Positions 1 to 56,633 of a stretch of 64,000 nt of DNA are shown piece by piece. This DNA comes from Flavobacteriales bacterium. Its GTDB lineage: Bacteria > Bacteroidota > Bacteroidia > Flavobacteriales_D > Crocinitomicaceae. A program made the translations under genes and the position numbers. Under the pieces are notes generated by a model that was not told where the DNA came from, did not search any database, and saw nothing but the letters and a program-made list of their open reading frames with translations. The stretch covers positions 1,380 through 65,379 of the forward strand of contig CANMTO010000008.1 of assembly GCA_947500755.1 (NCBI GenBank), read 5' to 3'. The first letter of the stretch is position 1. The number at the start of each line of letters is the position of its first letter.

Positions 1-3000
1 TAAAAGACGCTCCTGTACCTACCTGCGTAGAACCATTCGCGTTTGAATACCAATAAAAAGTATTTCCACCACCACCGTTTGCATTCAGCACCACAGTTTG
101 ACCGCAGTTTATAGCTGCCGGAACGGCGGCTGAAGGAGCTGCCGGTAAATTTACACTAACGGCAACCGGAATTAGGTTTGATGAACATGGGGTACTCATT
201 TGAGTGATCGTAACCAAGCCATGACCGGTTCTAATACCTCCAACAATTAATGGATTCGTACCAGAGTTGAACGATCCACCTCCACCACCGCTACCGGTGT
301 TGTTATCATGGTATCCTCCAGCACCGCCTGAATAACCGCCGCCACCGCCGCCGCCGCCAGTGTTACCATGGGTACCACCACCGCCACCAAAACCACCAAT
401 ACAGGTAGCATTTGATCCATGGTTACCGCCATTACCGCCATTAATAAAGGATAGACCTCCTGTACCGTAAGATCCGCTACCACCGTTAGAGGACAATCCT
501 CCACCGCCAGAAGCACCACTGTTGTTACAGCCGTTTCCTCCGTTTCCTCCGGCACCGCCGGTCGTACAACCAGAAGCTTGTCCGTTGTTCGCAGTAACCG
601 CATGCGCATTGTGAAGAAGTGAACTTGTAGAATACTGTCCACCGCCACCGCCGGCAACAAGAAGCGGAACATTGGCAGAAGTTGTAACGAAGGATCCACC
701 TCCACCACTACCAGAAGTTGATACACCCCCTTGTTGTCCAACTAAGATTTTAATTTGCTGACCCGCTGTCAATTGGAAGTCGCCTCGTATTTGGGCACCT
801 CGACCGAATTGATTAGCTCCACCGCCTTGAGCACCGAAGGCTTCAATTCGGTAGGTTGCGGTTGTTGGAACGGTCCAAAGCTGAATACCACTTGAAGATG
901 TTACTAAACCCGCCAAATTTGTGGCTGTATAAGCCGAATTTACCTGAGCTTGAGTTGGACCAAACTGTCCAGTTGCAGAGCAGTTAGTAAATGTGTAGGT
1001 TGTACCAGCACCCATACCCGTGGTTGAAGCCACGTAATAGGTAGTAGCACTTGATAGCGCAGGCGTAGTCCATGGACTTCCTGTTCCTACAATGGTAGAT
1101 CCTGCTGCGTTTGAAAACCACGTAATCGTATTACCACCTCCTCCAGCTGCAGAAAGTACTGTTGTTTGACCGCAGTTTATGTTTACGTTCGGGTTAGCTA
1201 CAGAAGGACTAGCAAGCGGATTAACCGTAACTACAACCGGGTTAATGGCTGTTGCACAAGCACCGGCACCGGCACCCACATAATAAGTCGTTGTACCTGA
1301 AAGTTGAGGAGTCGTATAACTTGCTCCTGCTACCAATAAGGTTGAACCGTTGGCATTACTGTACCAATTAATTGCACCAAGATTGTTGGATGCAGTAATT
1401 GTAGTCGTTTGACCGCAATTTATCGTTACGTTGTTGGCCGTTGGTGCGGTTAATGCATTTACGGTTACCGCAACCGGTATTAATGAAGAAACACAAACCG
1501 CGGAATTCCAACTGATAGTAACTAATCCATTTCCTGTTTTAAAGCCCTGTGTATGGGTTATAGCAGAAGCTGTTGCATCAGTAAAACTTGAACCGCCACC
1601 GCCGCCGCCGCCGCCATATCCAGAACCACCACCATAATAACCACCACCACCACTACCGGCATAATATCCAGAACCACCACCGTTTCCAAGGGAACCTGCC
1701 GGACCACCTTGAGAGGCTCCAGCGCCTCCAGCAGCTTGAGTTCCTCCTTGACCGCAGTAGGTTGGATTAAGTGAATTATTAGTATATCCTCCACCACCAA
1801 TTAATCCTCCACCGAGGCCACCATGATCGTTTGTCCAGTTCCAATAATATCCTGCACCACCACCACCACCGGCGACTATTTTTCTATCCACTAAGGCAAC
1901 ACCACCGATTCTAACATCGGTAGCACCTCCACCACCAGCAACACAGCCACATCCATAAGGCACGCCTCCACCATTCCAACCTCCAAGAGACATGGTGCCT
2001 TGACCACCTACATTCACATATACTGTTTGCCCCGGTGCTACAGAGATGGTTGCTTGAACGCGACCACCATTACCACCCGTACCATAACTTGAAGTACCAC
2101 CTTGCGCTCCTTGCGCGTCAACCGTAATAGAAGTTACACCTGCCGGTACCGTCCATGTTTGCTGAGCCCCAGTGTAATTAAATGATTGAGTCCCTGGCGT
2201 TGTACTAACAGAAGAAACATAATATGTTGTTGCTGAGGTTAAGGCAGGAGTAGTATAATTAGCTCCCGAACCAACTGCGCCAGTTCCATTTGAATTGGTA
2301 TACCACAGATAAGAATTACCTGCACCATTAGATGCTGTTAAATTTGCTGTGGTACCACAACCAACAACTGCAGCATTTGCTGTTGGAGCCGCTAATGCGC
2401 TTACGGTAATTGGAACAGCCACGGGTTGAGAAGCACAACCGATACTGTTCCATGAAATGGTAACAATTCCGTTTCCTGTTTTAAATCCTTGAGTATTGGT
2501 AACACTAGTTGATTGATTATTTGTGAAGCTAGAGCCACCGCCACCGCCACCGCCGTAATATCCTGAACCACCGCCGTAGTAACCACCGCCACCACTTCCT
2601 GCGTAGTATGCAGATCCTCCACCGGTGCCGAGTGTACCTGCTGGCGCACCGAATCCAGAAGCCCCTGCTCCACCCGCAGCCTGAGTTCCACCCTGACCGC
2701 AATACGTTGCGTTGTAGTTATTATTTGCTTTTCCTGCTTCTCCAGTTAAACCACCGCCGTTTCCGCCGTGATCATTGTTCCAGTTCCAATAGTATCCTGC
2801 ACCGCCACCACCACCGGCAACAATGGCACGGTTGGCCAATGCATTTCCACCAATACGAATGTCTGAGGCACCACCACCACCACCAACACAACCGCATCCG
2901 TAAGGTGTTCCGCCACCGTTCCAACCACCAGTTGAATAATTACCTTGGCCACCAACATTGACAATAATTGTTGCACCTGGAGATACAGGTATTGTTGCTT

Positions 3001-5020
3001 GGGTTCTTCCACCGAGTCCGGCTGTACCGTAACTGGTCTGACCTCCTTGAGCTCCCTGCACATCTACATTAATTGAAGTAACTCCTGCGGGAACTGTCCA
3101 CGTTTGTTGTGCGCCTGTGAAATTAAAGGTTTGACTTCCTTGGTTCACATTTGCTTGAACCGCATAAATGGTAGTTCCTGCGGCCAACGAAGGCGTTGTA
3201 TATGTTGAACCTGTACCCAATAGGTTGCCCCCTGCTGCGGCAGTGTACCAAGCCGTGTTGTTTCCAGAAGAAGACGTTAACGTGGTAGTTCCCCCGCAGC
3301 TTATTGCGGTAGTCCCTGTAATTACAGGCTGTGATACGTTCGAGTTTACGGTAACGGGCACCGCAACAATATTTGAAAGACAAGCCCCTTGACCTGCAGT
3401 TGTTGCAGCCACTTGTGTTAAAAATGTGGTTGCTATGTTGGTTGCCGTATTGTCGTCAATATAACCACCACTTGATGCGGCATATAATAAATAGTAAAGT
3501 CGAGTTGTCCCGGAAAGACCAGAAATATCATGTTGCGTATTATCTGTATTGGTTGCCCACGTATGTGTTGCTCCTGCATTATTTGGAATAATAACCATTT
3601 GGTTGATAGATGGGTCTCCAGCACTATATACACGCTTTAACATTACCTTATAAGTCTGGCATCCTACTGTTACAGATAGTGTGGTTCCATTGTACGTTCC
3701 AGAACCATCTGCCCCGTTATTTCCTGAAATGTTAAATGTAGAGATGTTGTTGACATCAGCTGCCAAAACCCACATGTTATTAATTTTTCTCGTAAAGTAC
3801 TGCCCCCCTGCACCAAAAATATTGGAGTTCGCAATGGCATTATCCGAATATGTAAGGTTGTTCCCGAGGTTTGTTCCGATGTAGTTACCTCCATCGTACA
3901 TGTCATTTCCTCCATCACTGATGTAGGTACTGTTCAATCCGTTTGGACCATCCATGGTAAAATTATAACCATTGGGAACCGCTGCGCTTATTGCTCCTGC
4001 ATTTGAGTTTAGTGAACTCAATATGTTTGCTAAAGAAGCGGCACTACATCCTGCTTGTCCAGAAGTTGTGCGCACATAATAAATGGTATTCCCTACAAGG
4101 GCTGGCGTAGTAAAAGAAGCTCCTGTTCCAACTTGTTGCGTCGCTGCCGCATCTGAATACCACACGTAAGTACCTGCACTTCCAGAAGCAGTAAGGGTAG
4201 CTGTATTACCGCAATTGATACTTACAGGGTTCGCTGTTGGAGAAGGCAAGGGATTCACTGTAATAGGAACCGCTACAACGGGTGAGGTGCATGGTATATT
4301 TTGATAAGTTACCGTAACTCGCGCATACAATCCATTCAAAGAACCATGGCCATTGAAAAAACCTAAACACGTACTTACTGGAATTCGAAATTGATTTGCC
4401 CCGGCGACCACATACTGGTTCGGCTGAAAGTTAAAGGTAAAAATATTATTGTTAGACCCACAACAATTACAATGGTAGGCAGGTGTGAAGGGGGTGCCGT
4501 TATTATTATTCAATTGCGGGGTTAGTGCTTGGCCGTTGTGACATTGTACACCCACGCTAATCTGTATTTGAACAGTTGCAATTTGGGTTCCTGCTGCTAA
4601 ATTGTCATTCCAATTGAATCCCACAGACCCCCCGCAACCATAGTAAGACGATGCACCCCCACAACAGTTGTTTGGAACATTTACCAATTGGCCATAAGTT
4701 GAAATATTATAGGTTTGAGTACCCGCCTGAGCTGCTCCTGCTGCACCGCGCAGATACATAGTTGTATTTGAGGTTAAGGCTGGAGTGGTATATGAGGCTC
4801 CTGTACCGACCATGTTGGTGCCTGCCGCATCGCTGTACCATATATAGTTAGGAGAGCCCGTTGCAGATAGTGTCGCTGTTGCGCCACAATTTATCGCAAC
4901 CGCATTCGACGTAGGCGTTGGAGGCGGGCATTGCCCAAATACAAAAACCATTGCAAAGATTGCAAAGGCCGTAAATCCAAATCGCAGAAAAAGCTTTGAA
5001 GAGTGTAGAAGAGTAGTCAT
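1..5020 (-). CDS. Giant secreted multidomain surface protein, 3' end beyond the window (signal peptide; at least 7 Ig-like INCG modules; Cys-rich module; unassigned module; three glycine-rich Gly_rich/ALK-LTK-type domains)
   Basis: Absent from the ORF track because it has no in-window stop. Hand translation of the minus strand from ATG 5020-5018 gives [55 protein letters not shown]... I re-verified the same frame at 4561-5020, 3841-4080, 3061-3180, 2441-2500, 2161-2200, 1501-1560, 600-1020 and 1-260. It is still open at base 1 (...[38 protein letters not shown]). All track ORFs at 247-3918 lie in other frames or on the other strand. Confidence 0.85.
   Translation of the reverse strand, partial: [1673 protein letters not shown]
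1508..3133 (-). repeat. Intragenic tandem duplication: two glycine-rich domains of about 228 aa (2450-3133 and 1508-2188) separated by an Ig-like spacer
   Basis: [31 protein letters not shown]...[13 protein letters not shown] compared with [31 protein letters not shown]...[13 protein letters not shown]. The nucleotide copies differ mainly at third codon positions. Confidence 0.8.
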
Positions 5021-5343: not shown

Positions 5344-7434
5344 CTAATTAACTACGAACGGTAGTATACTATGTTTTTTAGTACTGGTTGAAACGAATTG
5401 TGCGAGGTATTTCCCACTGGCTAATGGAAGGCTTAGTGATTGGCTTCCTTCTAAAGCTACATCAAACACTACGCGGCCTTGCGCGTCAAAAATACGTGTT
5501 TGAAAAATTTCATCTGTTGGAAGGGAAACATTGAACGATCCACTGTTAGGATTTGGATATAGGCTAAACACCATGTTATCTATGCTCGGTGCCTCTGCAT
5601 TCATAAGATTTTGTACCTGAAAGGAGTCAAGCATTTGACAGCCGTTGGCATCGGTAATGAGCACCTCATAGAAACCCGAGCCCAGCGAAGTTAAATCCTC
5701 AGATGCGTCATTGGTATTCCAAAGATACATATAGGGTGCTACTCCCCCTTGGGCTGTTAGATCAATCGCCCCATTGTTTAAGACCGTTTCATCCGTAACA
5801 AATCCAGTAGCCACGATCGCTGAAGGAGCAATCAAGTTAAAGGCTTGTTGAATTGAACATCCATTTCCAAAAGAAAGCGTTGCTAAATATGTACCAGCTC
5901 CCAAGCCACTGAGTTGGGTTCCAACACTTCCCTCTGACCAAAGCACCGAGGTGGCTGTATTATTTGTAACATTCAACTGTATTCCCCCATTGTATGAATC
6001 AGCGCACAAGGGATCTGCTTGAATAACGGTGTAGGTTGGAGGAATCACATCATATACAAAAACAGCGGTATCTAAACGACATCCGTGCGTTCCCTCAATG
6101 TGTACCGTATACGTGTTCGTGGTAAGACTAGGATTAAATACACCCGTTACGTTATTCCCCCAGGTTACATCAAACGGAGCTTGTGCTCCCTGTATTAATA
6201 AGGTTGCTGACGCATCTTGGATATAGCAAGAATCGGTCAACAAAAAGGCAGGGACAATCGGGTTCCAAGTATTTGAGGCAGCCAACACCGCTTGAAAGGC
6301 ATCTAACCTACCCGCACCAAGTTTACCTGCATACGTTGGGTTTAAAGAATTTAGAGGAGCTGCCGTACTTTTAAGTATTTGCTCAATTTGAATGTTTGAG
6401 ATGCATTTATTGGCTGATAGCATTAATGCCACTGTTCCACTTACATAAGCGGCCGCGAACGAGGTTCCGTTCATATTCAGAAACCATCCACTTGCTGGAG
6501 ATACCGCAACACCGTAACCGGGCGCAGCTAAATCTACTGAATCATTATGGTTATGTGTCGAGGTTGGATCACCCGCCCACTGCTCGTGATTGTCTGTAGC
6601 ACCTACCGAGGTAACGGAGAAGACATGATTGTAAGAAGCTGGGTAAACAAGCGCATCTGGTAAGCCACACGTATTTCCATTTCCGGCTGAAGCTACAATA
6701 AAGGAACCGTTAGCGGCAGCCTCTTCGATTACATCCTGTTCCAATTGACTGAAGAAGCACCCGCTGCTCCAACTGATGTTAATAACATCGGCGCCCGCGT
6801 AACTTGCCGCCAAGACCTCATTAAAATTCATTTTATAGAGGGCAAGGCTTGTATTGAAGCCAATAGAACTTAGACCATAGCCATTGTTCGTTTTACCAGC
6901 GGCAGTGATTGCAACAGCTGTTCCATGCGTAGTGGTTAAATTGTTATTGACGTCGTAGTAAATATATTTCCCTTCTAGGTCCTGGTGATTCACATCGAAA
7001 TTTTGATCGCACACAGCAATCACCACTTGATTATCGCCTTGGGTTAGATCCCATGCTTGAGGCGCATTGATCAGGGTTAACGCATAATCAGAAATTCCCG
7101 CTTGACTGTTTAAATCATTTGGGACGTATAAAGGGGTGTATTCAGGGCCTCGTTCGATGCTGTAAATTTTACTTCCTAAAGAAGCACACGCCTCTTTAAA
7201 TTGCAGAAGATCGCACTTCCCGTTAACTTCATACACTTTTTGAAGTTCGGGATTTCTACTTGCACTGAGTGCTTTTACAGGGGTAGTCAATTCAAATCGA
7301 TTGCTTAGGGCACTCCACGCAGTTGAACTAAAGACCGAAGGTTCAGCTTTAAACCAAAAGGTAGATTGTTGAGAGAAAGCGACAGAAATCGAACAGACAA
7401 TGAAAATTGTTTTAAGGAAAGATAAGCAGTTCAT
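5344..7434 (-). CDS. S8 (subtilisin-family) serine peptidase with SprB-like repeats and a T9SS type A C-terminal sorting domain
   Basis: Triad contexts are VIAVCDQNFD (Asp), HGTAVA (His) and GTSFAAAYVSGTVAL (Ser). The signal peptide MNCLSFLKTIFIVCSISVAFSQQ starts at the internal ATG 7434 (the ORF extends to 7473). The C-terminal tail is SLYPNPNSGSFNVSL...GKYLAQFVS. Confidence 0.9.
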   Translation of the reverse strand: MNCLSFLKTIFIVCSISVAFSQQSTFWFKAEPSVFSSTAWSALSNRFELTTPVKALSASRNPELQKVYEVNGKCDLLQFKEACASLGSKIYSIERGPEYTPLYVPNDLNSQAGISDYALTLINAPQAWDLTQGDNQVVIAVCDQNFDVNHQDLEGKYIYYDVNNNLTTTHGTAVAITAAGKTNNGYGLSSIGFNTSLALYKMNFNEVLAASYAGADVINISWSSGCFFSQLEQDVIEEAAANGSFIVASAGNGNTCGLPDALVYPASYNHVFSVTSVGATDNHEQWAGDPTSTHNHNDSVDLAAPGYGVAVSPASGWFLNMNGTSFAAAYVSGTVALMLSANKCISNIQIEQILKSTAAPLNSLNPTYAGKLGAGRLDAFQAVLAASNTWNPIVPAFLLTDSCYIQDASATLLIQGAQAPFDVTWGNNVTGVFNPSLTTNTYTVHIEGTHGCRLDTAVFVYDVIPPTYTVIQADPLCADSYNGGIQLNVTNNTATSVLWSEGSVGTQLSGLGAGTYLATLSFGNGCSIQQAFNLIAPSAIVATGFVTDETVLNNGAIDLTAQGGVAPYMYLWNTNDASEDLTSLGSGFYEVLITDANGCQMLDSFQVQNLMNAEAPSIDNMVFSLYPNPNSGSFNVSLPTDEIFQTRIFDAQGRVVFDVALEGSQSLSLPLASGKYLAQFVSTSTKKHSILPFVVN

Positions 7435-21871: not shown

Positions 21872-22921
21872 TTAATTAACTCGTACTTTCTTTCTGTTGA
21901 TGTTATCTAGACTGTAGCGCACAAAGGTCTCAAAACCACCTTTGAAATTCGATACTAAAGATAAACGAGAGATGTTAATATCGTAAGCAAATCCGGCGGA
22001 AAAAGGCCCGTAAAAGATGGCCGAGCGCACCACCATGGCGTCTTTGAATCGATTAAAAACACCTACACTGAACGCTATTTCCTTGATGTTATCTGTTTCC
22101 CAAGAGGCCTTACGTATGATTTGCTTGTAACTAACTCCGAACAATAATTCGTTGGATTTGCGCTGCCTCTGAAAATAGATCGCGGGCTGAAGCACCCCAT
22201 TCATTGCTGTGATGCCAATATTCGCATTGACGAAACTTGAATAACGCACAGGAAGCGTTTGAATGCTTGAATTATAAAAGGAATACCTTGGATTATTGAC
22301 GTGATACGCGGCAAATCCCACATTAAATCCTTTATCCGCCTCGTTGGTAACCTTGCCAATATCGGTTTGAAAGGAATAGACCCCACCAACACCCAAGTCG
22401 AAGTATGAAAAATTTTGCTCATAAAACGGCTCACCATTCGGAAGAATAGGATTAAACGACATCCCGTCATACTGTGTACCCCATTGTCCAGCGGCCGGAT
22501 TAGTAACGCATTGTCCAAAGGTTGAATTCAAGCCTAAAGCAACTTTGCTAAACCGAGAAATCTTTAAATTGTATGAGAAGTTAATGCCAATATTACTTTG
22601 GCTGAAGTAACCATCACCCATTCTATCATTGACGAAAACAAGTCCTGCCCCTAAGGTTCCATTTGAATTTTTCAATGCTGCAGTTAAACGCCCGTCTATA
22701 GCAGCAAAAAACGTTTGAAATGGAGAAGCAAAACTACCGTATTGTCCTCTATACATGGCTATCCCTTGAAACGACGCATTAGCACCTGCCAACGCCGGAT
22801 TCAAGGTGAGTGGGGATATCTCTGCTTGAGAAAAATGTACATCTTGCGCGGTAAAAACCAAGCAACGCATGGTTAATGCTAGAACCAAAAATGTTTGAAC
22901 TGTACTGCGTGTATTCATCAT
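21872..22921 (-). CDS. PorP/SprF family type IX secretion system membrane protein
   Basis: N-terminal AQDVHFSQAEISPLTLNPALAG signature; about 350 aa of beta-barrel-like sequence. ATGA overlap with the upstream type-B cargo gene. Confidence 0.88.
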   Translation of the reverse strand: MMNTRSTVQTFLVLALTMRCLVFTAQDVHFSQAEISPLTLNPALAGANASFQGIAMYRGQYGSFASPFQTFFAAIDGRLTAALKNSNGTLGAGLVFVNDRMGDGYFSQSNIGINFSYNLKISRFSKVALGLNSTFGQCVTNPAAGQWGTQYDGMSFNPILPNGEPFYEQNFSYFDLGVGGVYSFQTDIGKVTNEADKGFNVGFAAYHVNNPRYSFYNSSIQTLPVRYSSFVNANIGITAMNGVLQPAIYFQRQRKSNELLFGVSYKQIIRKASWETDNIKEIAFSVGVFNRFKDAMVVRSAIFYGPFSAGFAYDINISRLSLVSNFKGGFETFVRYSLDNINRKKVRVN

Positions 22922-25038
22922 CTTACCAACGTTAAACTACCTGATTTATGAAGTATTGTATCGTCGTACAATTGTACATTTAAATCATACACATAATTTC
23001 CTTCTTGCGCTGGCCTACCTTTATAAAACCCATCCCATTCAGCATTGATATTCGTAGCCTCAAATACTTTTTGCCCCCAACGGTCATAAATTACAAATCC
23101 AAAATCCTTTACGCATACTGCTTTTCCAAAAACCCTCAGCGTGTTGTTTTCTTTCGGACCTGTTCCATTCGGACTAAAAATCGTAGGAACAAAAAACTCA
23201 CCACATAACAGTTTTACGCTAACTACCAAAGAATCTTCCCCTTGACATCCATTATTATCTTCAACCTGTACGTAATAGGTAATGGTAGAATCTGGGGTTA
23301 TGACTGGATTCGGGCAATCGGTACAGGATAAGCCATCTACGGGACTCCAATCGTAGATTGTTCCACCATAAACATTGGCAATAAACGAAGTTTCAGGGTT
23401 GATCACGGTATCTCCAGGAATCATGGTTATCGGTAAAGAATTAACAATACCAATAGTGCCCGCTGCCCCTATTTGACAACCGTTTGCATCACTTACATTC
23501 ACCCCATAGGTCCCGATATTCAGGTTTGAAATGCTGTCTGTGGTATTTCCATTTGTCCAGAGGTAATTGTAAGCACCTGTTCCACCAGACACCGTAACAT
23601 CCATGGTTCCTAAAACGCCTGATGCACAATCAATCGATGTTGAATCAGCACTAATGGTGAGGACGGGAGGCTGAATAATCGTAATTCCTTGCACGACCAC
23701 ACAATTCAATGCATCTACTACAACAATGTTGTAATTCCCCGGAGCTAGGCCAGTAACGGTATCGTTTGCTACACCAATTGGAGACCAAGAGAAAACAAAA
23801 GGCGGGGTTCCCAATGAATCTATCTGAACAGCTGCGGAACCATCTGCTGCGCCATTACAAGATACATTAGTAACGAAATCAATACTCACTACCGGTGCTT
23901 GTGGTGTAGGATTAACCGTATACGAACTTAAAGAAGTAGTAATGCAGTTGGATAGGGTATCCTGAACATATATCGTGTAAACTCCTCCTGGAATATTAGG
24001 AAAGATGGGGCTTGCTTGATAATTAGATCCATTTAACGAATACACGTAGTTGGTACCAAGTGGGGCAGTCACCGTTATAGTACCTAAGGGTTGAGGACAG
24101 TTTGGTTGCGCGACCGTTGCTGTTGGAACCGGTGGAATAGTTAGTGCATTAGCAATTGTTGCACTGGTACTAAATCCTGAAGTACAACTCTGATTATTTG
24201 TTACAGTAAAGAGGTAACTCACTCCTGCAGGTAATCCAGTAAAAGTTGCGGTTGTTCCAGATCCTGTTTGAGAAAATGCACCCGGTGAGGCGTTCAAGGT
24301 CCAAGTTCCTGTTGAAGGTAATCCTGACAAAAGTACACTACCCGTATTTGAGGCACACGTAGGATTTTGTATGACTCCTACCTGGGGTGCGCTTGGATTG
24401 ATTGGTGGATTAACGAATACATTGTTTGACGGAACAGAAGTACATGCCGATGAAATCAATGTAACAGTAAACGTATATGAACCAATCGGCAAGTTTGTAA
24501 AACTAACATTAGGGCCAATGCCCGTTTGTGTAAAAGTAGTTGGACCAGGACCTGTTGCAGTGATTGTCCATTGTCCTGTGGTTGGTAAATTCGATAAAGG
24601 TACAGTACCGGTTGTAACACCCGGCGCGCAATTTGGTTGTTGCACCAATCCAGCTATGGGTGCAGGTGGATTTGATGGTATGGCGTTAATATTTACTGCA
24701 CTAGAGAACGCTGATGTGCATGGCACATTCGGCTCGATACAGATGAATGTATACGCTGTTCCAGGGGATAAATTACCAACGGTAGCTGTTGAGCCTGAGC
24801 CTGATTGTGTTGGTGCAGGAAACGGAGGAGGAACTGGTGCGCCTGAAGGAATCGCATACAAGTCCCAATTACCGTTTGGTAAACCAACCAACGTTGCAGT
24901 AGCCGTGGCGTTGGTACACGTAGGCTGAACAAGGGCTGTTATTACCGGCGCAAGCGGACATTGGGCCATCGTAACAATCGAGTTACCCAAACCTGTAAAA
25001 CCAAAGAATAAGAAGAAGAATCGTAAATTTCTAATCAT
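22918..25038 (-). CDS. T9SS type B sorting-domain surface protein (Ig-like/SprB-type repeats)
   Basis: ATG 25038 gives MIRNLRFFFLFFGFTG. Contains repeated modules of about 80 aa (VQPTC...LP.G.W...G.Y.F.V...C.S) and SprB-like repeats (CNGAADGSA..., GGTGAYNYLW...DANGC). The C-terminal gliding-motility CTD is FFVPTIFSPNG...YDRWGQKVFE...WDGFYKGRPAQEGNYVYDL. Confidence 0.88.
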   Translation of the reverse strand: MIRNLRFFFLFFGFTGLGNSIVTMAQCPLAPVITALVQPTCTNATATATLVGLPNGNWDLYAIPSGAPVPPPFPAPTQSGSGSTATVGNLSPGTAYTFICIEPNVPCTSAFSSAVNINAIPSNPPAPIAGLVQQPNCAPGVTTGTVPLSNLPTTGQWTITATGPGPTTFTQTGIGPNVSFTNLPIGSYTFTVTLISSACTSVPSNNVFVNPPINPSAPQVGVIQNPTCASNTGSVLLSGLPSTGTWTLNASPGAFSQTGSGTTATFTGLPAGVSYLFTVTNNQSCTSGFSTSATIANALTIPPVPTATVAQPNCPQPLGTITVTAPLGTNYVYSLNGSNYQASPIFPNIPGGVYTIYVQDTLSNCITTSLSSYTVNPTPQAPVVSIDFVTNVSCNGAADGSAAVQIDSLGTPPFVFSWSPIGVANDTVTGLAPGNYNIVVVDALNCVVVQGITIIQPPVLTISADSTSIDCASGVLGTMDVTVSGGTGAYNYLWTNGNTTDSISNLNIGTYGVNVSDANGCQIGAAGTIGIVNSLPITMIPGDTVINPETSFIANVYGGTIYDWSPVDGLSCTDCPNPVITPDSTITYYVQVEDNNGCQGEDSLVVSVKLLCGEFFVPTIFSPNGTGPKENNTLRVFGKAVCVKDFGFVIYDRWGQKVFEATNINAEWDGFYKGRPAQEGNYVYDLNVQLYDDTILHKSGSLTLVR

Positions 25039-25172
25039 AAAGTATTTTAAATACTCATTTCTGCCCCGTAAAGTTACACTAATATTCAAATATTTCCCAA
25101 GAAGCCCATTGAAATTGAATTACGCAATAATATAATCTTGGTTGCTTACCAAATAAAACAGACCTTTGTGAC

Positions 25173-34796: not shown

Positions 34797-34847
34797 TAAA
34801 TAATTGTTAGGTAGCCTCCAAAATTAACCATTATAAAAGATTGTATA

Positions 34848-34855
34848 TACCTTTG
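34848..34855 (+). promoter_or_regulatory. Candidate -7 box TAccTTTG
   Basis: Exact TAnnTTTG match 16 nt upstream of ATG 34871. No well-spaced -33 TTG. Confidence 0.25.
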
Positions 34856-34870
34856 TTGAAAGCAACTTTT

Positions 34871-37429
34871 ATGCGTATTTTTCTAAGACAGAACATTTTA
34901 ATACTGTTTTTTCTTAGTAATGTTTGTGTTTTATCTCAAACCCTTGTTATTAATGAAATTTCCCAAGGCCCCTCGGGTTCAAAAGAATACGTGGAGTTCT
35001 TGGTGGTCCCAACGGGAGCAATAAATCCTTGTCAACCCAATGCCAATTGCCTTGACCTCCGTGGATGGATTTTCGATGACAATAACAGTTATTTCACACC
35101 GGGAAGCACATCGGGTGTTGGGCTAGCTCAAGGCTCCTTACGATTTTCCAACTCGGCTTTTTGGGCATGTATACCGGTTGGGACACTCATTGTTATCTTC
35201 AACGATATGGACATAAATGCTTCAATTCCAGCTAATGACGTTAGTATGAATGATGGAAATTGTCGATTAATAATTCCAGCATCCTCGGGCTTAATAGAAG
35301 GTAACGCAAATAATCCATCGGCTGCCGCACCTTTAACGTATCCTATTGTTGGATGGACGGTAGGAGGCTTTTGGAATTATACTGGAATGGCTAATACTGG
35401 CGACTCGTACCAAGTTTATGCACCTGTTAACACCAGTATTCCAGCACATGCGATTAGTTGGGGAAATAACTCTTCAAACAATATTATATATTTTGCCGGA
35501 CCATCAACTGCTTTGGTCTTTTATTTTAATAGTTTGAGTAACAACCCCTACGTACAAAATAATTGGTCAAGTGGGTCTTCTCCTTTGTTTGAAACACCTG
35601 GATCTGGCAACAATGCCGCAAACACGAACTACATTCAATCGTTAACCAACAATTGTAGTCCTATTGCACCTTTGGTGGTCAATCCATCGGCTCAACCTGC
35701 TGTTTGCATATGCAATGGAAGTGTAACTGCCTCCCCAAGTGGTGGGAATGGCGTATATTCTTATGTATGGACAAACGCACAGGGACAAGCCATTGGTAAT
35801 TCGTCAACTGTTTCTAATCTTTGTGCAGGTTGGTATTACGTTCAAGTAGGCTCTGGAGGATGTACAGACAATGATAGCATTCAAGTTATTAACGCTGGGG
35901 CACTTATCAATCCAACGTTTTCAAACTTTGGACCATATTGCCAGGGTGTAATTCCTGCCGTTTTGCCCAACACCTCCAATAATGGCATCACAGGCACATG
36001 GACACCGCCTAGCATTAGCACGTTTAGCAGCGGCAGTTCGGTATACACCTTTACCCCAAACGCAGGACAATGCGCTAATACGAGCACCCAAACTGTAGTG
36101 GTGAATGGGAACATAACGCCAACATTTAATACGTATGGTCCATATTGCCCTTCAGCACAACTCCCTGCACTTCCAAATACTTCACTTAACGGAATTAGTG
36201 GTTCATGGAACCCCGGAATGGTTAATTCAACCTTAGGCTCAACTACCTACACATTCACACCCGCAGGAGGACAATGTGGCAGCACAGAAAACCTCATAAT
36301 AACCATTATAAGTAGTGTAGCACCCACCTTTATGAATTTAGGGCCTTATTGCCAAAATACGCTTGTGGCTCCACTACCGAGCACATCCAATAACGGCATT
36401 AGTGGGAATTGGAATCCACCTTCAGTTAATGCGAATATACAGGGTTTAGGTACATATATTTTCACTCCTGACGCTGGTCAATGCGGCGACACTATTGTGC
36501 AGCAGATTCAAGTAAGCGCGGAGTTATCTACAACATTTACGAATTTTGGTCCTTACTGCTTAGGTGATTTTACCGCACTGCCTAATACCAGTAGCAATGG
36601 GATTTCGGGAACTTGGAATCCATCAAATATTAATACCTCCCAAGTAGGAACAAGCACCTATACCTTTACCCCCACCCCCGGAAATTGTGCCATAGACACG
36701 GTTATATCAGTGTTAGTGGCTAACCCACTTATCAATGCGGGAAATGATACTACTATTTGTGCTGGAAATTATATTATATTGGAAGGGAGTGGTGGAAGCA
36801 ACTATCTATGGAATAATGGGGTACAGAATGGGATTCCATTTTCACCAAGTACCACCTCAACATACACCGTGTGCGGTACTGTTGGCTCTTGCACCGGATG
36901 TGACACCGTTCTAGTGACGGTAAATCCAAGTCCTAACGCTTCCTTTATATCAGATATAAGTGGCTACGATGTTCAATTTTTATACATGGGAACCCCTGTA
37001 CAAACCTTTAACTGGGATTTTGGTGATGGTGATAATTCCTCGTTGATGGATCCAGCTCATACCTACACTAGCCCGGGTACCTATGGGGTATTACTGATAG
37101 TAAATGATAACGGATGCACAAGCACTTATTTCGCAGAAATCGAGCTCTTTGCACCAGGAACCGATGTACATCTGATTAATATCATTACGCCAAATGGGGA
37201 TGGGGTGAATGATGAGTTCTACTTAAACCTGAATGGATATAAAAAGGTGACTATACAAATAGTTAACCGTTGGGGAAATCTCATGGCAGAATTGACTGGA
37301 TCTCAACTCACTTGGGATGGGAAAACGAATGGACATATGGCTCTAGAAGGCGTGTATTTTTACACATACGAAACGCTGGGTTATGACGGTAAGAACGCCA
37401 CGGGTCATGGATTCTTTCATCTAAAATAA
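34871..37429 (+). CDS. T9SS type B sorting-domain surface protein with an N-terminal lamin-tail-like domain, four Cys-containing 69-aa repeats and a PKD domain
   Basis: ATG 34871 gives MRIFLRQNILILFFLSNVCVLSQ. LTD-like LVINEISQGPSGSKEYVEFLVV...LRGWIFDDN; PKD FNWDFGDGDNS...HTYTSPGTYGV; CTD INIITPNGDGVNDEFY...VNRWGNLM...WDGKTNG...EGVYFYTY. Confidence 0.88.
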   Translation: MRIFLRQNILILFFLSNVCVLSQTLVINEISQGPSGSKEYVEFLVVPTGAINPCQPNANCLDLRGWIFDDNNSYFTPGSTSGVGLAQGSLRFSNSAFWACIPVGTLIVIFNDMDINASIPANDVSMNDGNCRLIIPASSGLIEGNANNPSAAAPLTYPIVGWTVGGFWNYTGMANTGDSYQVYAPVNTSIPAHAISWGNNSSNNIIYFAGPSTALVFYFNSLSNNPYVQNNWSSGSSPLFETPGSGNNAANTNYIQSLTNNCSPIAPLVVNPSAQPAVCICNGSVTASPSGGNGVYSYVWTNAQGQAIGNSSTVSNLCAGWYYVQVGSGGCTDNDSIQVINAGALINPTFSNFGPYCQGVIPAVLPNTSNNGITGTWTPPSISTFSSGSSVYTFTPNAGQCANTSTQTVVVNGNITPTFNTYGPYCPSAQLPALPNTSLNGISGSWNPGMVNSTLGSTTYTFTPAGGQCGSTENLIITIISSVAPTFMNLGPYCQNTLVAPLPSTSNNGISGNWNPPSVNANIQGLGTYIFTPDAGQCGDTIVQQIQVSAELSTTFTNFGPYCLGDFTALPNTSSNGISGTWNPSNINTSQVGTSTYTFTPTPGNCAIDTVISVLVANPLINAGNDTTICAGNYIILEGSGGSNYLWNNGVQNGIPFSPSTTSTYTVCGTVGSCTGCDTVLVTVNPSPNASFISDISGYDVQFLYMGTPVQTFNWDFGDGDNSSLMDPAHTYTSPGTYGVLLIVNDNGCTSTYFAEIELFAPGTDVHLINIITPNGDGVNDEFYLNLNGYKKVTIQIVNRWGNLMAELTGSQLTWDGKTNGHMALEGVYFYTYETLGYDGKNATGHGFFHLK
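35905..36725 (+). repeat. Four tandem repeats of about 207 nt (69 aa) within the CDS
   Basis: P(T/S)F.N.GPYC......LPNTS.NGI(T/S)G.WNP.......G...YTFTP..GQC occurs four times, beginning near 35905, 36113, 36316 and 36523. Confidence 0.85.
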
Positions 37430-53981: not shown

Positions 53982-56633
53982 GTGAAAACGCTTTTAGTTT
54001 TTTTCGGTTTTTGTATCACTCTTCAAGTTTGGGGGCAAAATTTCATTTATAACGGTCATTTCGAGTTCGGAGGGCTTGGTACGGGATTTAGTGTGAACGG
54101 ACAAGGCTACACGAACCTCATTCCTCCATACTTAGGCACCACTCAACCCGGTGATTTTGCCATTACAAATAACCCGCAACCTTTGAATAACGGATATTTC
54201 CTTCCGTTTTCGGACCACACTTCGGGTCAAGGAAATATGTTGGTAGTAGACGGGGGAAGTATTGGTGGAAATCAACCTTTCTGGCAAGCGGGGAGCAACG
54301 GAGGCGGTGTTTGTGGCTTAACGCCAGGGAATCCATATGTGTTTAGTTTTTGGTTGCGTTCAGCATCAAGTGCTGTAACAGGCCTAGCTACGCAAGCAGA
54401 CATTAAAACACTTTTTAATAACGCCAGTAATATTCAAGGACTAACGCCTACCCTAGCTCCTCTTCCTGCGCTTGGTTGGCAAGCCTATGCGGTGGAATTT
54501 GAAGCGACGAATTCTTGCGTAAACATTAGCCTTTATGACGATAATATCAGTGTAATTGGGAACGACTTTGCCATAGATGATCTCGCTGTAATGCCCCTTG
54601 GGGATCCGCTAACGTTAACGGCATCTACCACTCGGCCTTTCTGCAGTGATTCAGTAAGCGGGGGGCTTATCGCATATGCCAAAGGAGGATACCCTCCCTA
54701 TCAATTCACCCTAACTGGAATGATGGGTACGTGGAATAATGCATCGGGTATTTTTACAGGATTACCCAACGGGAGCTACGATGTAACGGTAACGGATGCC
54801 AATAATCAAACCGTAATCCTTCCAAATCAACCTGTTTATCCGAATGATTTCTTACAGGTTAATCCTGAAGATACCCTCGTTTGTGGAAATACTCCATTGG
54901 ATTTAACCGTTACTGGAGGAACCAACACCAATTACCTTTGGATGGCTACTCCGCCAGATCCAAATCTATTGAATCCACTGAATGACACGATAACCGTAAG
55001 TCCGAATCAGTCGACCACTTACCTTGTCTCCACCAATAATTTAAATGAGAATTTGGTTGCCAACGGGAATTTCGAAGCGATGAACACCGGGTTTTACAGC
55101 GATTTATCATTTCTCACCCCAACCAATCCAAATGGGCTACAAACAAGTTATGGGATTACACCCAATGCAAGTTTTTGGGAAGGAACATTTTCGCCCTGTG
55201 TGGATCACACCTTTGGCAATGGCGTAGGAAATATGATGGTGATTGATGGAGCAGTATCCGGAAATCAAACGGTATGGAAGCAAGTAATCTCCGTGGAAAA
55301 AAATACCAATTATTCCTTTTCCTACTATTCGCAATCGGTAGAAAGTAACAACCCGGCAATACTAAAAGCCAGCATAAATGGAATTTTCCTTAGTGTTGAC
55401 ACCTTAACGAATACCACCTGTTCATGGCAACAACAAAGCGCCACCTGGAATTCTGGCACTGATAGTATAGCAATCTTATTGATAGAAAATTTGAATCAAA
55501 GCGGCCTCGGAAACGACTTCGCTATTGATGATATATCATTCAGTACGTTGCGCTCTTGTAGCGGACAAGTAACCGTTCAAATCATTGGTGGAAACCCTGA
55601 TCTAGGTCTTAATTACCCAACTGATTTGTGTGTCAATTCAGGCGTGAATAATCCAACACTCTCCCCGAACACCCCTAATAATGGCACGTATAGCTCATTT
55701 CCGGGAGGACTCAACCTAGATCCGGTCAGCGGAGCTATAAACACCACTGGCAGCGGTCCTGGTACATATTCCGTGGTGTACAGTGTGTTGGTCTGCTCTG
55801 TATTGGCAAAAGATACCGTAGAAATCACAGTGCATGCCCTACCGAGTCTATTAAGCTTAACCGGTGGCGCATACAATTGTGGGTTGCAAACATTCGATTC
55901 TGTACTCTTGTATCTAAATGCGGTATATCCGGTAACAGTGAGTTGGACCTTAAATGGAACTGCCCTCGTAACGAACGGAGTAACGGATCCTGTATTTTTA
56001 GATACGGAAGCTGGACTCTATGTGCTGCAGACGATTACAGATGGGTATTGTACGGCGAATGTTAATGGAAGTATTTACTTAGATTCGCTATCCATTCCAG
56101 AAACACCCATTATCATCGGTGATACTGCAGTATGTGACAATGAACCCTCCGAGGTGATCTCCTTAAGCAATTCCAATCCGAATGGCGTAATTTCATGGTA
56201 TAGCGATGCTGCACTCACGCAGTACCTCGAAAGTGGAAATTTTTTCTATCCAAGCAATGATAGCTCAGCGACCTATTATGTGGTGCAAACCGTGAACGGG
56301 TGTTCCAGCAATGCAGCGGCTTTTTCAACATCCATTGTTCCGTGTAACCTGGTGGTGCCAAGTGCATTCACTCCTGACGGCGATGGAGATAACGACGTTT
56401 GGGAAATCGTTGGATTAGATGCGAAATTTCCATTGAACCAAGTGAAAATATTTAACCGATGGGGAGAACTGATATACACCAGTATCGACGGAAACTATGC
56501 CTCCGAACCTTGGGATGGAAGCTTTAAAGGCGAAGCACTGCCTGTTGGTAGCTACTATTACATCATTGAAAAGGCTACAGACGGTAGTATTGAGCCCATA
56601 AACGGAACGCTTTCCATATTACGCGCCCCATGA
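53982..56633 (+). CDS. T9SS type B sorting-domain surface protein with two CBM-like jelly-roll modules
   Basis: GTG start, MKTLLVFFGFCITLQVWGQ. NGHFEFGG...NDFAIDDLAV and NGNFEAMNTGF...NDFAIDDISF; SprB-like GGYPPYQF...DANNQ; CTD VVPSAFTPDGDGDNDVWEI...FNRWGELIY...WDGSFKGEALPVGSYYYII. Confidence 0.88.
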   Translation: MKTLLVFFGFCITLQVWGQNFIYNGHFEFGGLGTGFSVNGQGYTNLIPPYLGTTQPGDFAITNNPQPLNNGYFLPFSDHTSGQGNMLVVDGGSIGGNQPFWQAGSNGGGVCGLTPGNPYVFSFWLRSASSAVTGLATQADIKTLFNNASNIQGLTPTLAPLPALGWQAYAVEFEATNSCVNISLYDDNISVIGNDFAIDDLAVMPLGDPLTLTASTTRPFCSDSVSGGLIAYAKGGYPPYQFTLTGMMGTWNNASGIFTGLPNGSYDVTVTDANNQTVILPNQPVYPNDFLQVNPEDTLVCGNTPLDLTVTGGTNTNYLWMATPPDPNLLNPLNDTITVSPNQSTTYLVSTNNLNENLVANGNFEAMNTGFYSDLSFLTPTNPNGLQTSYGITPNASFWEGTFSPCVDHTFGNGVGNMMVIDGAVSGNQTVWKQVISVEKNTNYSFSYYSQSVESNNPAILKASINGIFLSVDTLTNTTCSWQQQSATWNSGTDSIAILLIENLNQSGLGNDFAIDDISFSTLRSCSGQVTVQIIGGNPDLGLNYPTDLCVNSGVNNPTLSPNTPNNGTYSSFPGGLNLDPVSGAINTTGSGPGTYSVVYSVLVCSVLAKDTVEITVHALPSLLSLTGGAYNCGLQTFDSVLLYLNAVYPVTVSWTLNGTALVTNGVTDPVFLDTEAGLYVLQTITDGYCTANVNGSIYLDSLSIPETPIIIGDTAVCDNEPSEVISLSNSNPNGVISWYSDAALTQYLESGNFFYPSNDSSATYYVVQTVNGCSSNAAAFSTSIVPCNLVVPSAFTPDGDGDNDVWEIVGLDAKFPLNQVKIFNRWGELIYTSIDGNYASEPWDGSFKGEALPVGSYYYIIEKATDGSIEPINGTLSILRAP

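Follow-up and report, generated by a model that had tools for sequence, protein, structure and literature searches.

The ligand-binding region of the receptors ALK and LTK consists of a TNF-like beta-sandwich fused to a polyglycine-II honeycomb. Its fold is among the handful of polyglycine-II bundle folds that have been structurally characterised (bioRxiv 10.1101/2023.11.25.568672), and 14 polyproline-II (PPII) helices have been published for human ALK (PMC13243192). The tail fibre protein gp24 of cyanophage Pam3 contains domains of TNF-like and of glycine-rich type that resemble ALK (7LIR) and to which host recognition, by way of a variable distal tip, was ascribed (PMC9608196). Here we describe the 5' part of a giant gene located at the left end of a 64,000-nucleotide stretch of DNA (the window; positions 1,380 to 65,379 of the forward strand of contig CANMTO010000008.1, assembly GCA_947500755.1), whose source is an uncultured freshwater Cryomorphaceae/Crocinitomicaceae bacterium (Flavobacteriales). 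The encoded protein bears a putative signal peptide, repeated Ig_7 spacers and several glycine-rich (GR) domains, and the comparisons given below support the homology of the GR segments with the glycine-rich domain of ALK/LTK. A preliminary description had read the gene from the sequence as that of a giant adhesin-like protein of unusual architecture, with three GR domains, secreted by the type IX secretion system (T9SS); it is partly supported, the domain identity and the secretion route being right and the unusual architecture and the copy number wrong.

The open frame and its glycine-rich domains

Frame 1 of the minus strand, starting at ATG 5020, contains no stop in 1673 codons and is open to the window edge, as had been proposed, whereas the remaining five frames of the same 5 kb contain 70-99 stops each. 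The chance of such an open frame arising from the base composition is about 1e-40. An in-frame stop sits five codons upstream of ATG 5020, and the same start was chosen in an independent public gene call (L001 12415). Using the exact sequence of the neighbouring S8 peptidase gene, we found a longer contig of 74.5 kb (ENA ERZ27280207 k141_2205356, here L001), in which the shared part of the gene (all 1673 codons) has exactly the window sequence and the gene extends to 2199 codons (526 residues beyond the window) and is still open at the contig end, the C-terminus lying beyond it. Neither an in-frame stop nor a frameshift was found in this extension, and the added sequence encodes a fourth and part of a fifth GR domain. 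The gene is missing from the list of complete open reading frames (ORFs) since it continues past the window edge; the list shows instead 13 ORFs of 60 aa or more within 1-5020, all of them off-frame or antisense and V/L-, P- or H/R-rich, so that the about 15 spurious His/Pro/Val-rich ORFs counted before were essentially right.

Pfam detected Ig_7 (PF19081) in seven stretches of the window protein (E 1e-65), in agreement with the Ig-like spacer that had been said to recur at least seven times, and the layout of the protein is that of beads on a string, with Ig_7 spacers between binding-type modules (Table 1, where aa i corresponds to nt 5020-3(i-1)). The limits of the three GR domains of the window, which contain 30-33% Gly, agree to about 10 nt with those given in the preliminary description. 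The putative Sec signal peptide combines a basic n-region (K9, R13) with a hydrophobic core of 15 residues, and by eye it is conserved in the orthologue P0001 (see below). The NCBIfam scan of the whole window protein gave no family.

The gathering threshold of PF12810 (ALK_LTK_GRD) is 24.5 bits, and it was passed by both GR1 and GR2 (Table 1) and by the whole window protein (121 bits). The assignment of the GR segments to this family holds for these two domains; GR3 alone scored 13.2 bits, although its profile matched ALK. A phmmer search of the protein against the PDB sequences reached human ALK with an E of 1.5e-18 through aa 1342-1432, and a GR3-type profile built from 27 sequences (A1) matched ALK (E 3.7e-36), LTK (1.4e-31) and C. 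elegans SCD-2 (7e-14), with no other match in the PDB. In the phmmer alignment 106 of 250 positions of GR3 are identical to human ALK (42%), and in the TNF-like N-part 46 of 91 (51%). All 14 published PPII helices of ALK (PMC13243192) align to Gly-rich stretches of GR3, such as GGFGGGGG and GGGGGGYSGG, and GR3 has the extra N-terminal helix 'C.ATG..GPTQAQVN.AY' as in ALK, a segment that is missing from GR1 and GR2. GR3 is a distinct subtype, more ALK-like than GR1 and GR2 despite failing the Pfam threshold.

The AlphaFold2 (AF2) model of GR3 had a predicted local distance difference test (pLDDT) of 86.1 and a predicted template modelling score (pTM) of 0.88. Foldseek comparison of this model with the PDB retrieved the TNF-like/glycine-rich (TG) structures of ALK and LTK (E about 5e-16, template modelling score (TM) 0.74-0.79, identity 31-34%); the next family appeared only at E 0.05, and none but ALK/LTK was significant among the matches listed. 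The structure prediction that had been suggested as a check gave for GR3 an ordered TNF-like sandwich with a glycine lattice. Three subtypes were distinguished in the protein, short (GR1, GR2 and GR5), ALK type (GR3) and long (GR4), the three copies of the window falling into two of them. Judged by hhalign comparison (GR1 vs GR3, probability 99.6%, E 1e-24; GR1 vs GR4, 100%; GR3 vs GR4, 99.2%), the three subtypes are mutually homologous. GR4 alone gave no match against the PDB sequences, and GR1 retrieved with phmmer antibody matches only, which we consider spurious, being compositional and produced by its GYYWNW motif.

Orthologues, cassette replacement and probable secretion

A homology search with the 2199 recoverable residues retrieved full-length orthologues of 3832 (P0001, 81% identical), 3790 (P0002), 3764 (P0003) and 3454 (P0004) aa, all of them carrying PF19081, PF12810 and PF18962. 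The window holds the N-terminal 44% of a protein of roughly 3800 residues. The count of three GR domains made before is correct for the window, but five are encoded in the 2199 aa of L001 and seven were detected in the 3832 aa of P0001, so the full protein has seven or more. The leftward extension of the contig that had been recommended yielded the 2199 codons, and the T9SS domain expected at the C-terminus was found in the full-length orthologue P0001, whose locus is syntenic and where TIGR04183 (T9SS type A sorting domain) scored 25.0 bits against a cut-off of 23. On this profile match, the sorting domain would be of type A (Por_Secre_tail) and not of the CHU_C type, which one might expect from the name Ig_7. 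The reading of the gene as that of a giant secreted adhesin-like protein is supported, as one protein.

In the P0001 locus, which lies on a contig of 1.29 Mb (L010), the gene order of the window is kept (LptD, amidase, MlaD, Fer4, CCG, RecJ, S8 peptidase, giant). Downstream, the orthologous giant (L010 21749-31499) is followed by genes for a T9SS protein of 1378 aa, a protein of 241 aa without family and a T9SS giant of 5197 aa with PKD and Ig_7 hits. Very large T9SS cargo genes thus form an island 3' of P0001; the counterpart of this region is situated to the left of the window.

The orthologues P0001 to P0006, which are 64-88% identical in the best local alignment, differ by the replacement of whole cassettes. 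The GR2 slot is occupied by a short-type domain in the window gene and by an ALK-type domain in P0001, P0002, P0003 and P0005, and P0004 has no Cys-rich module and bears a GR3-like domain near its N-terminus. The occurrence of whole-cassette differences among close orthologues suggests a recombinational shuffling of binding cassettes between close relatives. In the alignment of GR3-type domains the Gly motifs are invariant, and the entropy, insertions and indels are concentrated in the connecting segments.

Other related loci (L003-L009) belong to pond or lake metagenome-assembled genomes (MAGs) of Cryomorphaceae, Crocinitomicaceae or Flavobacteriales. Each of the seven either is interrupted by a contig end or is on a short contig, so that short-read catalogues systematically truncate or miss these giants. 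Near-identical internal repeats were considered as the cause of the contig break; within the window this explanation is unsupported, because the DNA of the GR1 and GR2 cassettes is only about 72% identical.

The gene next to the giant gene in the window encodes, as had been described, an S8 subtilisin-like peptidase, with a T9SS type A sorting domain, and the adjacency of the two genes is kept in L010. Including the peptidase gene, four more T9SS cargo genes (CHU_C or Por_Secre_tail) were found in the window beside the giant gene, and the window is rich in T9SS substrates, because further cargo genes with CHU_C sorting domains are present (Table 1). No tRNA genes were found within the window. 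The G+C content is 47.6% in the giant gene (1-5020) and 41.4% in the rest of the window (5021-64000); we attribute the high value to the load of GGN glycine codons and not to a foreign origin.

Table 1. Modules of the giant protein and T9SS cargo genes in the window
Feature	Residues (aa)	Position (nt)	Strand	Basis or remarks
Giant T9SS cargo gene, 5' part	1673 codons	2..5020	-	open frame, L001, orthologues
Putative signal peptide, Sec-type, MTTLLHSSKLFLRFGFTAFAIFAMVFVFGQ	1-30	4931..5020	-	read directly from sequence
Ig_7 spacer 1	~31-94	4739..4930	-	PF19081; approximate boundaries, by subtracting neighbouring modules
Cys-rich module, about 10 Cys	95-250	4271..4738	-	predicted all-beta sandwich, CBM35/CBM6-like
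Ig_7 spacer 2	251-319	4064..4270	-	PF19081
Mid module	320-550	3371..4063	-	predicted alpha/beta fold; no Pfam or PDB match
Ig_7 spacer 3	551-627	3140..3370	-	PF19081
GR1, short-type ALK/LTK-like glycine-rich domain, 31% Gly	628-860	2441..3139	-	PF12810, 82.4 bits; hhalign
Ig_7 spacer 4	861-942	2195..2440	-	PF19081
GR2, short-type glycine-rich domain, 33% Gly	943-1174	1499..2194	-	PF12810, 75.8 bits
Ig_7 spacers 5 and 6 in tandem	1175-1337	1010..1498	-	PF19081, best stretch aa 1192-1268
GR3, ALK-type TG domain	1338-1610	191..1009	-	profile, AF2, Foldseek
Ig_7 spacer 7, cut by window edge	1611-1673	2..190	-	PF19081
S8 subtilisin-like peptidase, SprB repeat, type A sorting domain		5344-7434	-	TIGR04183, 39.6 bits
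T9SS cargo gene, type B CHU_C, SprB repeats		22918-25089	-	
T9SS cargo gene, type B CHU_C, PKD domain		34841-37429	+	
T9SS cargo gene, type B CHU_C, Ig_7 domain		53982-56633	+	

A proposed binding function and its alternatives

The Cys-rich module and the further module of about 220 aa of the preliminary description proved to be discrete domains that fold confidently. A single AF2 job over aa 95-550 (A2) covered the Cys-rich, Ig_7 and mid modules. The Cys-rich module was modelled as a beta-sandwich (pLDDT about 80-90) that matched the CBM35/CBM6 jelly-rolls 2w3j, 2w47 and 4qb2 in Foldseek (probability 1.0, TM-target 0.50-0.53, E about 1e-3), this CBM35-like match being the sole consistent one of the whole Cys-Ig-mid model. 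For the mid module a confident alpha/beta fold was predicted (pLDDT 85-98), and its conserved motifs are ISDGGNDMYDGGN, GNNGADG, KRVY.A.DPSINQ and TRLYYLL. Nothing above noise was obtained with Pfam for either module, DSRM_2 (E 0.055) being rejected. A match of the Cys-Ig-mid profile to the kinetochore protein CTF3 among the PDB sequences was taken as chance (E 1e-3 over 50 residues only), and the Foldseek matches of the model to BcsB, PorU and a glucanotransferase were not accepted (TM about 0.2). Both modules recur in many T9SS giants without GR domains (for instance P0043, P0063, P0072 and P0029), where the mid module is present in one to three copies, mostly two, as tandem pairs, and they are candidates for new domain families.

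Taken together, it seems likely that the giant is a modular, multivalent adhesin or ligand-capture protein exported by the T9SS, in which rigid polyglycine scaffolds with variable loops are held apart by Ig_7 spacers. We propose this because the Gly motifs are invariant, the loops are variable, the cassettes are replaced as wholes and the phage tips are analogous; the CBM35-like fold of the Cys-rich module was also counted in favour of a binding scaffold. The protein would cross the inner membrane by means of its Sec signal peptide and the outer membrane through the T9SS, by means of a type A C-terminal sorting domain. The Ig_7 spacers would alternate with a single Cys-rich beta-sandwich of CBM35-like fold, a single alpha/beta module and several TG domains, whose invariant Gly motifs would build a rigid lattice, while the variable, indel-rich connecting loops would form the recognition surface. 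Whole-cassette swaps between close relatives would diversify the specificity. We infer surface display, a binding function and a ligand, for which cell surfaces, polysaccharides or particles are candidate targets.

Several observations weigh against this proposal. The T9SS domain was seen in the 81%-identical orthologue P0001, the C-terminus of the window gene itself not being recovered, and in P0001 PF18962 narrowly missed its threshold (24.9 vs 27 bits). Attachment to the surface is not established, because proteins with type A sorting domains are released in some Flavobacteria and anchored in others. The predicted fold covers GR3 alone among the GR domains, and its polyglycine-II lattice is suggested by the TM-score and the aligned motifs. 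The mid module, with its conserved Asp-rich motifs, could be catalytic. No experiment or characterised bacterial homologue linking the GR domain to adhesion was found in the searchable literature, and the corresponding PHROG families are annotated as of 'unknown function'. Finally, the analogues in phages form trimeric fibre tips and depend on chaperones, whereas the giant consists of monomeric single-domain beads in one polypeptide.

Four rivals (matrix protein, enzyme carrier, gliding adhesin and ice-binding protein) carry a lower weight than the adhesin or ligand-capture protein. It is rather unlikely that the giant is a released protein of the extracellular matrix, the rigid polyglycine domains of which would be structural in a coat, a biofilm matrix or a sheath. 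Its very large size, its repetitive and stiff domains, the soluble secretion that type A sorting domains give to some Flavobacterium proteins and the fact that the giant has no known ligand would all suit such a role, but the variability of the loops and the swapping of cassettes are better explained by recognition than by a purely structural task, and the phage relatives are located in tail-fibre or virion proteins. If instead the mid module were the active part, the GR domains would merely target or stabilise an enzyme or toxin-like cargo. This reading, which we consider improbable, draws on the confident alpha/beta fold, on the invariant acidic motifs (DGGNDMYDGGN, GNNGADG and DPSINQ) lying outside known families and on the weak Foldseek match to PorU; however, one to three copies of the module, mostly in tandem pairs, are typical of binding and not of catalytic modules, no catalytic family was matched by Pfam or by the profile against the PDB sequences, and the fold matches were weak.

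An adhesin of the SprB kind, carried along the cell surface by the gliding motor, would agree with the giant size of this T9SS cargo and with a Flavobacteriales genome in which SprB-repeat and CHU_C proteins abound. It is quite improbable, in view of the Pfam result that neither the window protein nor P0001 and P0003 have SprB repeats (PF13573) or PF13585, of the type A sorting domain where SprB uses type B, and of the syntenic locus, in which no PorP/SprF-like partner stands out beside the giant, its 241-aa neighbour left aside. By analogy with the antifreeze proteins of springtails (snow fleas), in which the polyglycine-II bundle is the ice-binding fold (bioRxiv 10.1101/2023.11.25.568672), flat polyglycine-II surfaces might hold a lake bacterium to ice, and related genomes do come from seasonally frozen lakes and ponds; but the lattice of ALK forms a honeycomb of many layers, which is for the most part buried and bears loops, and not a two-layer flat sheet, and the same domain is present in cnidarians, mammals and marine cyanophages, for which binding to ice would be senseless, so that this function is very improbable. 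A disordered, low-complexity Gly-rich stretch or a decaying pseudogene without folded domains could be suspected from the overall Gly content of 20% and from the break of every assembly inside the gene. This last reading is refuted by the 5 kb of open frame next to the stops of the other frames, by the 64-88% identical orthologues, four of them full-length at about 3450-3830 aa, by the confidently folded model of GR3 and by the strong matches to hidden Markov models.

Distribution and comparison with known systems

When 1.84 billion cluster representatives (clusters at 50% identity) were scanned with the GR3 profile using HMMER, 11,990 proteins were matched at E ≤ 1e-3, 7,335 at E ≤ 1e-10 and 2,969 at E ≤ 1e-30, many of them giants with 2-10 copies per protein. 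A search with GR3 alone retrieved relatives in several bacterial phyla, and giants combining Ig_7, PF12810 and Por_Secre_tail are common in metagenome genomes of Flavobacteriales, Chitinophagales and Sphingobacteriia. Contrary to the earlier claim, the architecture is not unusual, because the domain family has thousands of clusters, many of them multi-copy giants, and the NCBI annotation already calls relatives 'glycine-rich protein'. The gene belongs to a very large, already catalogued family, whose role in bacteria is putative. The earlier statement that it has no assigned bacterial function still stands within the searchable literature, in which nothing was found on bacterial PF12810 proteins or T9SS glycine-rich domains, the three 2021 Nature papers on ALK structures aside.

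Phages also carry the domain. Foldseek comparison of GR3 with predicted viral structures (BFVD) gave 48 matches at E ≤ 1e-3 (the best, 1.7e-18), with annotations including 'virion structural protein' and 'putative short tail fibre', and all three GR subtypes matched PHROG families (for example phrog_22713, E 2.8e-41). Bacterial surface proteins and phage virion proteins use the ALK/LTK fold as a mass-produced building block: its clusters number in the thousands, one protein may contain up to about ten copies, and some copies are 40-50% identical to the human sequence. This large natural library of sequences of the scaffold can be used in protein design and in studying how the lattice tolerates loop variation, and it provides a testable idea for the role of the abundant giants of freshwater Flavobacteriales. 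For annotation, the lesson is that complete-ORF tracks hide giants at contig ends and show off-frame junk in their place.

Small, non-kinase, stand-alone relatives of GR3 were observed in the cnidarians Xenia, Dendronephthya, Pocillopora and Nematostella (P0143, P0151, P0173, P0190, P0216 and P0235), with an identity of 42-48% where reported and on chromosome-scale scaffolds of 1.5-16 Mb. The GR3-type bacterial profile scored human ALK (3.7e-36) far above C. elegans SCD-2 (7e-14). The cnidarian relatives and the high ALK score of the bacterial profile bear on the origin of the ALK ectodomain and provide material for a phylogeny of it in animals; a flavobacterial cassette resembles the ligand-binding region of human ALK to an unexpectedly high degree, which bears both on the origin of the domain and on its use as a scaffold. 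A speculative and doubtful scenario is that the ALK-type TG cassette preserves the ligand-binding domain of ALK/LTK in its ancestral, microbial form. It would have been a hypervariable receptor-binding module common to aquatic Bacteroidota and their phages, passed horizontally to early animals via cnidarian stand-alone TG intermediates and later fused to a kinase, and in bacteria it would still be a programmable binding scaffold diversified by cassette exchange.

The TG supradomain of ALK and LTK (PF12810; PDB 7N00, 7LRZ and 7NX1) is homologous to GR3 by sequence and by predicted fold. The receptors have in addition a kinase, a transmembrane helix and EGF-like, MAM and LDLa domains, which the giant does not have: in the window protein and the full-length orthologues Pfam detected only Ig_7, PF12810 and Por_Secre_tail, and no tyrosine kinase, transmembrane or EGF-like domain. 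The giant also differs in its many tandem GR copies parted by Ig_7 spacers, in its T9SS route and in belonging to a bacterium without an ALKAL cytokine. It is an ALK domain homologue, not a receptor kinase.

Within the Bacteroidota, the T9SS Ig_7 giants annotated as 'glycine-rich protein' or 'gliding motility-associated C-terminal domain-containing protein' likewise have a signal peptide, Ig_7 repeats, inserted modules and a T9SS domain, and among them the close relatives number in the dozens and the more distant ones in the hundreds. Most Ig_7 giants bear CHU_C (type B) and no GR domain, whereas the lineage of the giant combines Ig_7 with type A and multiple PF12810 cassettes; no experimentally characterised T9SS Ig_7 giant with PF12810 was found in the Bacteroidota. 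Among phage proteins there are significant fold and sequence relatives of GR3, and its pattern of loop variability is similar to that of the glycine-rich phage tips, the giant being without their trimeric fibre context. Neither Pam3 gp24 nor gp38 of the Salmonella phage S16 was among the 50 Foldseek PDB matches listed or the nine PDB sequence matches. The design proposed for the giant's GR domains would be that of these two phage proteins, a conserved glycine-rich lattice with variable distal loops that are proposed to bind the receptor (PMC9608196).

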